This document shows positions 9,136 to 11,426 of a DNA stretch of 14,300 bases, one piece after another (the stretch's first letter is position 1; the number at the start of each line of letters is the position of its first letter). The translations under genes and the position numbers were made by a program. The stretch comes from a virus. The stretch lies in UHGV virus genome UHGV-0153413. One strand, 5' to 3'. Below the pieces are notes generated by a model. That model was not told the DNA's origin, did not search any database, and worked only from the letters and a program-made list of their open reading frames with translations.

Positions 9136-9852
9136 ATGGAAAATAAAAAATCACTGACGACAGAACAGCTCGAAGACGCTAAGCGGCTTAAGGCTTTGTA
9201 TGAGTCAAAAAAGAAAGAATTGGGAATAACCCAATACTCAATCGCTGATGAACTGGGTATCACCCAAGGAGCGGTAGGGCATTATCTTAATGGCAGAAAC
9301 GCGCTAAACGTTGAGGTTGCATCTGGTTTTGCACGACTGTTGCAAGTCTCAATTGCTGATTTTAGCCAGTCAATTGCTGCCAAGGTTGCAGAACAGGCAG
9401 AAAGCCTTAAGAGCGATGCCAACGTAAGGTATGCAGGGGAATACAGAGCAGGAAAGAGGTATCCGGTGTTAAGCAGTATCCAGGCTGGCTCGTGGTGTGA
9501 AGCATGCGAACCATACACCATTAAAGACATAGATGTTTGGCTTGAGTCTGACGCGCATATTCAAGGTAATGCGTTTTGGCTTAAAGTGGAAGGTGATTCA
9601 ATGACGGCACCGGTTGGGTTAAGCATTCCAGAGGGAACATTCGTTCTTTTCGATACCGGAAGGGAGGCGATCAACGGCAGCTTGGTCATAGCAAAACTTT
9701 CTGACTCTAACGAAGCAACATTCAAGAAGCTGATAATCGACGGCGGAAATAAATACCTCAAGGGACTTAATCCTGCATGGCCTCTCGTGCCAATCAATGG
9801 AAACTGCAAGATTATAGGCGTTGCAATTGAGACAAAACTAAGGCTGGTTTGA
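9136..9852 (+). CDS. cI: CI repressor (HTH-XRE N-domain plus S24 LexA-like autopeptidase C-domain)
   Basis: 238-aa ORF. HTH region QYSIADELGITQGAVGHYLNG, Ala-Gly (SIQAGSW) candidate cleavage site, catalytic Ser in GDSM and Lys in FKKL. Divergent from cro across the operators. Confidence 0.9.
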   Translation: MENKKSLTTEQLEDAKRLKALYESKKKELGITQYSIADELGITQGAVGHYLNGRNALNVEVASGFARLLQVSIADFSQSIAAKVAEQAESLKSDANVRYAGEYRAGKRYPVLSSIQAGSWCEACEPYTIKDIDVWLESDAHIQGNAFWLKVEGDSMTAPVGLSIPEGTFVLFDTGREAINGSLVIAKLSDSNEATFKKLIIDGGNKYLKGLNPAWPLVPINGNCKIIGVAIETKLRLV

Positions 9853-9869
9853 TCACGCAAGGGGCGATT

Positions 9870-10238
9870 ATGGTTGGAACCGCTATAGCAAGCTTTTTTG
9901 GGATGTTGGCAATCTCGACAATTTACGTCTTAGCGCATGCTTTTATTGCGAAATCTCTATCAGAAAAAATAAGCCAGGCTTGGGCGCATAGATCAGCTCG
10001 TTTCATGATTCTTGTGATCATAGCAATACAAGGGATATCTGCATTTATCCTCTATGTATCAAGCTTATACCTATTGTATCAAGGCGCGACATTTACGCCT
10101 TACACCAGTGATTACGGAACTCTATACGATGGTAGTGAAGACATCACTGTGGCTTGGATCGTCTTTGGTTTATCTATGGCCGTGTCTGTTGTAGCAGACA
10201 TCATTAAGGTAATTCTCGTCTTAACCTTCGCTGACTAA
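9870..10238 (+). CDS. Predicted 3-TM membrane protein in the rex position (cotranscribed with cI)
   Basis: ATG 9870 with RBS AAGGGG (a TTG at 9849 overlapping the cI stop is an alternative start). Three hydrophobic helices. Sits between cI and OL/pL, where lambda has rexA-rexB. No recognisable similarity to RexB as I recall it. Confidence 0.6.
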   Translation: MVGTAIASFFGMLAISTIYVLAHAFIAKSLSEKISQAWAHRSARFMILVIIAIQGISAFILYVSSLYLLYQGATFTPYTSDYGTLYDGSEDITVAWIVFGLSMAVSVVADIIKVILVLTFAD

Positions 10239-10323
10239 CCCATAATCCCGGCAGCAATAGCTATCGGGATCCACTTCACATATCCCGCATAAAAATCACT
10301 GAACAAGCAGACAGCGAAAAAAT

Positions 10324-10418
10324 AAATATCCTTTGTATTCATTTGTTTATCATTATTTCATCAAAAATAAATACCTTGGGTATTTACACAATAAAATACC
10401 TACAGTATTCTTTAGCCA
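10324..10418 (+). promoter_or_regulatory. OL operators and pL promoter
   Basis: Operators aaataccttgggtattt (10369-10385) and aaatacctacagtattc (10394-10410) share half-sites with OR; a possible distal site aaatatcctttgtattc (10324-10340). pL: -35 TTTACA (10383-10388), 17 bp, -10 TATTCT (10406-10411). The downstream sequence ATCAGCAGGACGC matches the start of the lambda pL transcript as recalled. Confidence 0.6.
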
Positions 10419-10457
10419 TCAGCAGGACGCTGGAAGCCAAACGGAACAGATTGGCAG

Positions 10458-10498
10458 GCTCTTTAACATTGATGGGATTGTCCCGCCGAAATGCGGGA
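10458..10498 (+). promoter_or_regulatory. nutL (boxA GCTCTTTAA plus boxB hairpin)
   Basis: gctctttaa (10458-10466), 14-nt spacer, boxB tcccgc/cgaaat/gcggga (10481-10498), identical to nutR boxB. Lies about 40 nt downstream of the predicted pL start. Confidence 0.6.
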
Positions 10499-10765
10499 AC
10501 CAAAGAGTAGTTGGCTTTGGGGTGTGGTGAAGCCAGCTAGTCACTGGCAAGTGCTTACCTACTGTTGAGCGGTGAAGCGCTCCCAACGCTAGCAATAGCG
10601 TGGACGAGATGGGGAGCCGCGGGCGATAAGGCCGCCATAACGCGCACGTTGTCGCATGGAAAAATCGCTGGGGTGCCGGTTATACCCCTCCGAATGAGAC
10701 TCAACAAGCTGGAGCTAGACTACCAGCCACCACACCACCAAAGCTAATCATCTGAGGAACAGAAA

Positions 10766-10885
10766 ATGTTAGACATCATGACCAACCCAATTCTCGGTGG
10801 TTTAGTTACCACATTCGCCATCTGCTTCGGTTTCACTATCTGGTCTGAAGTAGATGACTGGATGTGGGAACGCAAAAACAAATAA
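10766..10885 (+). CDS. Small single-TM peptide ORF (39 aa) in the N leader
   Basis: Hand-translated: RBS GAGGAA 8 nt before ATG 10766, MLDIMTNPILGGLVTTFAICFGFTIWSEVDDWMWERKNK, stop TAA 10883-10885. One hydrophobic helix then a charged tail. Below the ORF-track size cut-off. Confidence 0.4.
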   Translation: MLDIMTNPILGGLVTTFAICFGFTIWSEVDDWMWERKNK

Positions 10886-10925
10886 TCATCGACACACAAG
10901 GATGTGCACCTACCCGGAGGTCAAC

Positions 10926-11198
10926 ATGACAGTAGTCATTACATATCTGGCTGACGATAACACCAGAAATCGCCGCAGAGCACGCAGACAGGCTCAACGT
11001 GAACAGGCAATGCAAGAGCAGCGACTGGCGCGAAAAATTGCGCTAAAGCTCTCTGGTTGCGTCAGAGCAGATAAAGCAGCATCACTCGGAAGCCTTCGCT
11101 GCAAGAAGGCAGATGAATGCAGCGGAAGTATTTGCCTGCCAAACGTAGCCATTTACGCGGCAGGCTACCGGAAATCAAAACAACTGACAGCGAGGTAA
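10926..11198 (+). CDS. N: Antiterminator N (arginine-rich motif)
   Basis: ATG 10926 with RBS GGAGG at 5 nt. N-terminus MTVVITYLADDNTRNRRRARRQAQREQ carries an arginine-rich boxB-binding motif like lambda and P22 N. First gene after pL/nutL. The 114-aa track ORF is an upstream extension. Confidence 0.75.
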   Translation: MTVVITYLADDNTRNRRRARRQAQREQAMQEQRLARKIALKLSGCVRADKAASLGSLRCKKADECSGSICLPNVAIYAAGYRKSKQLTAR

Positions 11199-11201
11199 GT
11201 G

Positions 11202-11426
11202 ATGAATCAGACATACATTCCATCATGCTTGAGAAATCTGCCAAAGCAGAAAGCAAAGCCCAGCAAGCAAGCCATAAAGGACGCTAAGGCAGAGGTTATT
11301 GATCAAGCAATACAATTGCTCAGGAAGGAGTTAAGAAGTGGCAAGCTCGAAGGAATGATGATGCCCTATCAGCGCGGATATCTATCGGCGATTAGTAAGT
11401 TGGAAGTATTGAAGAGTGAATTATGA
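11202..11426 (+). CDS. Hypothetical 74-aa protein immediately after N (the ral position in lambda)
   Basis: ATG 11202 follows the N stop by 3 nt. Basic N-terminus and predicted helical C-terminus. No similarity to lambda Ral as recalled. Confidence 0.55.
   Translation: MNQTYIPSCLRNLPKQKAKPSKQAIKDAKAEVIDQAIQLLRKELRSGKLEGMMMPYQRGYLSAISKLEVLKSEL

Follow-up and report, generated by a model that had tools for sequence, protein, structure and literature searches.

In the textbook left operon of lambda-like phages, the stretch expressed before antitermination holds N alone, and the N leader of lambda is cleaved by RNase III at a site within this leader. Small membrane proteins of the AcrZ, MgtS, MgrB and CydX class act by binding larger membrane proteins. 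Lambda, Sf6 and HK620 share the order pL, nutL, N-leader (RNase III) hairpin and N, and for lambda the structured region between nutL and N has been tied to RNase III and to the repression of N translation by N and nutL (PMC5725501 and its references 28 and 29). The window analyzed here, a stretch of 14,300 nucleotides from the virus genome UHGV-0153413, is the early region of a lambda-like (HK620/P22-like) prophage. It has the same operon, the same nutL and the same closing stem of the hairpin as these phages, and the first start codon past the hairpin also follows at a distance of 18–21 nt. In contrast to lambda, Sf6 and HK620, this start codon belongs to a small ORF of 39 codons, and N, which has a second copy of the RBS, is displaced by 160 nt in the downstream direction. 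In our joint reading, to which we assign a probability of roughly 0.8, the small ORF is a gene under selection for a single-helix membrane protein of the phrog_7482 family and forms the first cistron of the pL operon before N.

According to the gene annotation, the minus strand of the window carries Rz, endolysin, holin, Q, the nin genes, a DnaB-like helicase, an O-like initiator and cII, and the left operon is located on the plus strand. The cI gene (9136–9852, +) was recognized by its HTH and S24 peptidase domains. Directly after cI, in the rex position, follows a gene for a multi-helix hydrophobic membrane protein of 122–129 aa (9849–10238, +; phrog_6534, a homologue of HK620 hkaS), which is likely expressed in the lysogen. 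The order on the plus strand is then pL, nutL, a structured leader of 240 nt, the small ORF, N and, by annotation, cIII, erf, ssb and abc2. The pL promoter-like site TTTACA-17-TATTCT (10383–10411, +) was found by a promoter scan and corresponds by alignment to the position of the annotated pL of HK620. The scan, which covered both strands of 10200–11300, gave no further promoter-like site, so that pL is the sole one 5′ of the small ORF. Since pL and the small ORF are not separated by another promoter, the latter is the first cistron of the pL operon.

The nutL element is of the HK620 type (10457–10498, +), with boxA GGCTCTTTAAC at 10457–10467 and the boxB hairpin at 10481–10498, as judged by the near-identical alignment with the HK620 annotation (L002:1658-1699). 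Folding, homology to lambda and covariation define the N-leader hairpin (10510–10748, +), which has a 20-bp closing stem (10510–10529 pairing with 10728–10748, A10737 bulged). The leader fold has a z-score of −3.75, and the closing stem is present in both the MFE and the centroid structure. The N leader of lambda has the same stem flanks, GGCTTTGG-GGTGTG... and ...CACACC-A-CCAAAGC, and covariation of the inner stem extends over at least six leader types, that of lambda included, with interiors of 29–217 nt. The leader of the window has the long homologous closing stem and the compensatory changes that characterize a lambda-type N-leader hairpin. A conserved frame GG[C/G]TTTGG ... bulged A/G ... 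CCAAAG was observed in lambda (L052), HK620 (L002), Sf6 (L005) and the loci L003, L008–L010, L035 and L039. The leader end ...CACACC-A-CCA, which we also considered as a tRNA- or tmRNA-like feature, is more readily accounted for by the lambda-type closing stem, of which it forms the 3′ strand, with the A bulged out and CCAAAG paired to CTTTGG. ARAGORN detected neither a tRNA nor a tmRNA in the window, and Rfam at gathering thresholds gave no family over its whole length.

The interior of the leader (10526–10747) is 100% identical to the Sf6 leader, with identity also to HK544 and HK446, so that the window combines nutL and N of the HK620 type with a leader interior of the Sf6 type. Because an HK620-type nutL is joined to this Sf6-identical interior, we place a mosaic junction at boxC. 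A different interior was seen in E. coli AR_0058 (L009:1401-1482) and also in L024, L027 and L028, where it consists of a tRNA-like gene directly 5′ of the small ORF. ARAGORN assigns this gene to tRNA-Pro(tgg) and PGAP to “tRNA-OTHER”, and its acceptor stem is the inner stem of the hairpin; tRNA processing could substitute for RNase III cleavage in this leader type.

The small ORF (10766–10885, +) starts with ATG and is translated into MLDIMTNPILGGLVTTFAICFGFTIWSEVDDWMWERKNK; its assignment to a membrane-protein gene is based on translation, conservation, family match and the predicted helix. The Shine-Dalgarno sequence GAGGAA (10754–10759, +) was read from the sequence, and the spacing to the ATG is 8 nt for the GAGG core and 6 nt for the full hexamer. 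An equidistant GAGG or GGAG, 6–8 nt 5′ of the ATG, is kept in all five lineages described below despite differing neighboring bases. The best 19-residue stretch of the peptide, residues 9–27, has a mean Kyte-Doolittle hydrophobicity of 1.74 and both the length and the hydrophobicity of a membrane span. An AlphaFold2 model shows a single continuous helix over residues 8–38 (mean pLDDT 83.9), which begins at Pro8 after the short acidic N-terminus MLDIMTN, and the C-terminal part is composed of a juxtamembrane acidic/Trp motif, SEVDDWMW, and the terminal RKNK. The lipoprotein or signal peptide reading was discarded, as a lipobox is absent and Cys20 is replaced by Gly in other alleles. From hydropathy and model we infer that the product is a 39-aa single-pass inner-membrane protein. 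The positive-inside rule suggests an N-out/C-in topology, and with this topology the conserved acidic/Trp motif would be situated at the cytoplasmic face. A first-pass annotation of this stretch had proposed an ORF with a good RBS, encoding one hydrophobic helix and a charged tail and lying directly after the structured element. All of this agrees with the present data, with the additions that the Shine-Dalgarno sequence is conserved across lineages, that the tail is rich in Trp and that 10748 is the last position of the closing stem on its 3′ side.

The length of the ORF alone is unremarkable, since the probability of 39 open codons is (61/64)^39, which amounts to about 0.15 for each ATG, and 1.8 kb of this region contain 26 ORFs with 25 aa or more. 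Its status as a gene is derived from conservation, which, unlike ORF length, exceeds chance. Copies were collected by megablast against complete E. coli genomes (31 of 5426, 84–100% identity), by a degenerate pattern of the C-terminal tail in IMG/VR (20 contigs) and by a degenerate pattern of the N-terminal motif in IMG/VR (6 further prophage-type contigs) and in metagenomes (4 further prophage-type contigs). Both degenerate patterns gave 0 hits in the GTDB species representatives, and there was no DNA-level copy of the ORF in 50,697 phage records. The full-length copies come from the window, from E. coli genomes and from contigs of IMG/VR and metagenomes; 35 of 35 are intact with exactly 39 codons, so that the reading frame is conserved in the related prophages recovered. 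Two of the locus sets require part of the peptide to match and are biased toward intact copies, but the C-terminal pattern left the start, the N-terminal half and the stop unconstrained. Only two broken copies were found (P0005 and P0006), and both are also without N. In the contigs L050 (Logan SRR8140205) and L051 (ENA ERZ24909973) the ORF is truncated at codon 22–24 and fused to erf or integrase-gene DNA, and N is missing. The two truncated copies look like deletion derivatives of prophages, with an assembly chimera as a possible alternative for the truncated contig with 2.4x coverage.

For the analysis of divergence we used 31 copies, which represent 12 DNA alleles, 9 proteins and 5 lineages. 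Pairwise dN/dS between lineages ranges from 0.05 to 0.25 at dS values from 0.26 to more than 1, and the pooled pN/pS is 0.21 for the frame of the small ORF, 0.51 for the antisense frame that shares its wobble positions and 1.09–1.42 for the other four frames. The amino-acid replacements are conservative (L/A, V/I, T/I, F/I, M/I and D/E). This substitution pattern shows 10766–10885 to be a protein-coding gene under purifying selection. In lineage A, an imperfect hairpin of 21 bp is predicted within the ORF (10809–10867). As four of five substitutions in lineage B disrupt this hairpin, the constraint acts on the protein and not on the RNA, and we rejected the hairpin as a functional RNA because it is not conserved in lineage B. 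The lineages A and B differ at 1 position in about 61 nt at 10838–10899, a tract that comprises the 3′ 48 nt of the ORF and 14 nt past the stop (TAATCATCGACACACA), versus 18 differences in the 5′ 72 nt of the ORF. This near-identity is most simply explained by recent recombination, but could also reflect a function or constraint at the nucleotide level; synonymous changes are present in the 3′ tract of the ORF in the lineages C and D.

A search against PHROGs v4 assigned the peptide to phrog_7482 (E = 8.1e-25, 87.5 bits), with residues 1–39 aligned to positions 1–39 of the 46 profile positions, and the peptide of lineage B matched the same family with E = 1e-22. The family is annotated as unknown function and includes Shigella phage Sf18 gp86 (“putative membrane protein”), Citrobacter phage Michonne gp114 and peg.130 of Avunavirus phage 19-1-2; Sf18 gp86 and the Avunavirus protein match the PHROG with E = 1.6e-29 and E = 6.6e-24. 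A tblastn search of the 50,697 phage records revealed no close copy but relatives of 45–46 aa with 32–35% identity in virulent Mooglevirus (Sf13–Sf19, Michonne and Mordin) and Avunavirus, some of them annotated as “putative membrane protein”; at the level of the whole database this link is marginal (tblastn E = 0.02). In a direct BLASTP comparison, the window peptide and Sf18 gp86 are 35% identical over 37 residues (E = 2e-10) and have the pattern MLDI(I/M)xNPIL...SE(V/I)xD in common. An HMM built from six Mooglevirus and Avunavirus proteins only recovered the window peptide with 27.8 bits (E = 2.5e-7 among 2519 ORFs) and all prophage peptides with 25–31 bits, and the best unrelated ORF of the 2519 reached 7.4 bits. 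A profile search in 1.8 billion representative proteins yielded only 7 hits, all of them the prophage peptide or start-extended or truncated versions of it, apart from one repetitive 489-aa protein, which we take to be spurious; the virulent-phage relatives were not among these hits. The comparison with Pfam, NCBIfam and PADLOC gave nothing significant (best match TrbC with E = 0.064, below its cutoff), and in Pfam there was no hit at E values up to 10.

The prophage form and the virulent members of phrog_7482 share the N-terminal motif M(L/I)(D/E)I(I/M/L)xNPIL(G/C)G and one hydrophobic helix, which is followed by the acidic motif (S/G)E(V/I)xD and a basic tail. Their placement also suggests early expression in both cases, as the virulent-phage homologues are located about 40 nt 3′ of a promoter-like site (TTGCAA-17-TATAGT) and the prophage form is served by pL. 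In contrast to the virulent members with 45–46 aa, the prophage form has only 39 aa and the Trp-rich tail DDWMWERKNK, sequence identity is limited to 32–35%, and the gene has no promoter of its own but is part of the pL operon 5′ of N. In Mooglevirus, a GC-rich hairpin follows 3′ of the homologous ORF, and the gene next to the homologue in the virulent phages is not N-like. Judged by profile matches and shared motifs, the window ORF is an unannotated prophage member of an existing, uncharacterized family of phage small proteins. The description of the ORF as hidden in the first-pass annotation is thus only half true: PGAP annotates it in none of the E. coli loci inspected, but the family already exists as phrog_7482. 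In E. albertii, a protein search with the peptide lengthened by one upstream in-frame residue pointed to a version over-extended at the N-terminus to 61 aa, which is annotated as “hypothetical protein”.

Downstream of the small ORF, an intercistronic spacer (10886–10925, +), described from sequence and folding, contains a small hairpin at about 10891–10910, which is stronger in lineage B (8 bp), and the Shine-Dalgarno sequence GGAGG of N (10916–10920). It is followed by the gene for the antiterminator N of the HK620/21 type with 90 aa (10926–11198, +), which was identified by PF25694 (E = 7e-15), phrog_271 (E = 7e-33) and synteny. The stop codon of the small ORF is 30 nt away from this GGAGG and 40 nt from the ATG of N (10926), and the 40 nt to the N RBS given earlier are in fact the distance to the start codon. 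The ACACACA after the stop was considered as an AgvB-like sponge for GcvB (anti-sRNA) and rejected, as such RNAs lie downstream of PR′ and not in the pL leader. In all prophages, the small ORF is located 6–10 nt 3′ of the N-leader hairpin, and in the window it starts 18 nt after the hairpin. The ATG of N itself follows 19 nt (lambda and Sf6) or 21 nt (HK620) after the leader hairpin in phages without the ORF. The start site of the small ORF, CCAAAGCTAATCATCTGAGG, is a diverged copy of that of N (CCAAAGTCAATCATCGGAGG in HK620), and N has a second copy, CGGAGGTCAACATG. The 35 full-length prophage copies, in all of which the ORF is situated between the leader hairpin and an N-like gene, span at least four N types, several nutL types and at least six immunity regions.

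While the N allele of the window is present in 777 E. coli genomes, the small ORF was found in 31 of 5426, which puts the share of ORF carriers among the E. coli prophages that have this N allele at about 3% and leaves about 97% without it. Because so few of these prophages carry it, we regard the ORF as an accessory insertion. An 8-nt direct repeat, TAATCATC, flanks the ORF module in lineage A at 10745–10752 and 10883–10890, with the stop codon included in the second copy. The AATCATC of this repeat also precedes the Shine-Dalgarno sequence of N in HK620, and the repeat is absent upstream of the ORF in lineage B; it may mark the recombination that inserted the ORF.

Several other explanations of the locus have to be weighed. 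The region could contain no gene at all, with the frame open by chance within a mosaic leader, or the true coding frame could be an antisense ORF of 51 aa (10744–10899). ORFs of comparable size are indeed common by chance, PGAP annotates nothing at the locus, and the antisense −1 frame is open through the region in 5 of 5 lineages. Chance does not account for a frame whose length, start, stop and Shine-Dalgarno sequence are conserved despite saturated synonymous divergence and whose peptide has a match in an already described protein family. It is only the lack of Tyr, His and Gln in the peptide that keeps the antisense frame open; this frame shares its third positions with the sense frame, its length varies, and we rejected it because of its higher pN/pS (0.51 versus 0.21, the lowest of the six frames) and the missing conserved start codon. 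It is hardly conceivable to us that the locus holds no sense-strand gene. The first-pass annotation offered the alternatives of a type I toxin and a small membrane regulator, of which the latter is reasonable and the former is unsupported. A toxin would be a membrane-damaging hydrophobic peptide with translation kept in check by an antisense RNA from the opposite strand, and the ORF resembles Hok, TisB, Ldr and Ibs in size and profile, with a hydrophobic helix and a charged tail 3′ of a highly structured leader; overexpression might be toxic. However, this leader is the ordinary N-leader hairpin that is also found in lambda, Sf6 and HK620 without the ORF, and the peptide has no detectable sequence similarity to the Hok, TisB, Ldr and Ibs toxins. 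An antisense promoter, for which the first-pass annotation had suggested a search over 10700–10900, was not found: a consensus scan of the minus strand of 10200–11300 gave no sigma-70-like promoter, and a relaxed scan was likewise negative for the window and revealed no site with a conserved position among the five lineages, although weak or atypical promoters could escape such consensus-based scans. An Rfam antitoxin RNA was not found either, and, unlike the genes of these toxins, the ORF has no promoter of its own but belongs, as the first cistron, to a phage operon under repressor control in all loci, so that it would be silent in the lysogen and need no antitoxin. The homologues are ordinary early genes of virulent phages. 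With neither an antisense promoter nor an own promoter found, nothing in the sequence marks the peptide as the toxin of a toxin-antitoxin pair, and we consider this interpretation very unlikely.

The proximity of N leads to a further alternative, in which the peptide itself is functionless and the act of its translation opens or closes the RBS of N or guards the leader from Rho or from repression by N and nutL. This is suggested by the N-like gene immediately downstream in each of the 35 full-length copies, irrespective of the N type, and by the start region of the ORF, which is a diverged copy of that of N (AATCATCTGAGG versus AATCATCGGAGG) at equal distance from the hairpin. The leader hairpin and nutL control the translation of N in lambda (PMC5725501), and the insertion must therefore alter the relation of the N start site to the leader. 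On the other hand, the strong purifying selection acts on the amino acids (pN/pS 0.21), the virulent-phage homologues have a different downstream gene, and the ORF is missing from about 97% of the prophages that have this N allele. A coupling of its translation to N, as also put forward in the first-pass annotation, would be expected to involve overlapping or abutting stop and start codons or a conserved structure that hides the RBS. Instead, stop and ATG are separated by the 40-nt gap, N keeps its own GGAGG-N5-ATG, which is identical in phages without the ORF, and the predicted pairings between the ORF and the Shine-Dalgarno sequence of N differ between lineages. Nor does the peptide look dispensable and unconserved outside the regulated context, as a leader peptide would be. 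Amino-acid conservation and the homologues in phages without N therefore argue against a mere leader peptide, and we consider it unlikely that coupling to N is the main role of the ORF, which may still have a side-effect on the regulation of N.

The preferred reading, a conserved membrane protein encoded in the first cistron of the pL operon, can be extended to a function by comparison with small membrane regulators. Like AcrZ, MgtS, MgrB and CydX, the peptide has fewer than 50 aa, a single helix and no signal peptide; it differs from them in being phage-encoded and in the absence of detectable homology or of a Pfam or NCBIfam hit. The MLELLK/MLDIIK similarity to AcrZ is superficial and not significant (BLASTP E = 0.47; no Pfam hit at E up to 10). 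As to the function, our best inference is an immediate-early effector that targets the host inner membrane. Because there is no promoter between pL and the gene and the gene is located before N, it would be off in the lysogen and its product made only upon infection or induction, together with N in the N-independent immediate-early phase, as this slot alone in the left operon lies upstream of the N-dependent terminators. Such an immediate-early slot without the need of antitermination would explain why an accessory gene whose action is needed immediately is always found beside N. In the virulent phages, the homologue would obtain early-type expression from its own sigma-70-like promoter. After insertion into the inner membrane, the peptide might, by analogy to the small membrane regulators and as a tentative proposal, bind a host inner-membrane protein via the helix and the acidic juxtamembrane motif and alter its activity early, either for take-over of the host or for the exclusion of other phages. 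It is also imaginable, if rather doubtful, that the insertion does both, that is, delivers an immediate-early membrane effector common to temperate and virulent enterobacterial phages and rewires the control by N. In this dual role, the effector might, for instance, block a host membrane protein on which phage entry or defense relies. The leader hairpin and the nutL-bound N complex would then act on the start site of the peptide instead of that of N, and N, 160 nt downstream with a fresh RBS, would escape or change its autoregulation.

A minority of prophages places a conserved 39-aa membrane protein ahead of N, in the position from which the translation of N is controlled, and unrelated virulent phages encode relatives of this protein among their early genes. 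The ORF is thus a concrete candidate for an immediate-early host-directed small protein, and its insertion is a natural experiment on the dependence of N translation on the distance from the leader hairpin. The ORF is also a further example of a real gene that is skipped by standard annotation (PGAP) because of its length; small ORFs are abundant in phage genomes, so the finding is useful more than surprising. A literature search gave nothing relevant on a small ORF between nutL and N or on phage small proteins detected by ribosome profiling. A different rearrangement around N was observed in phage mEp213 (L004, JQ182733.1 30879-32636), which carries two N genes in the left operon: an N of the lambda/HK244 type right after an Sf6-type leader and an N of the HK620 type about 1.5 kb further downstream.
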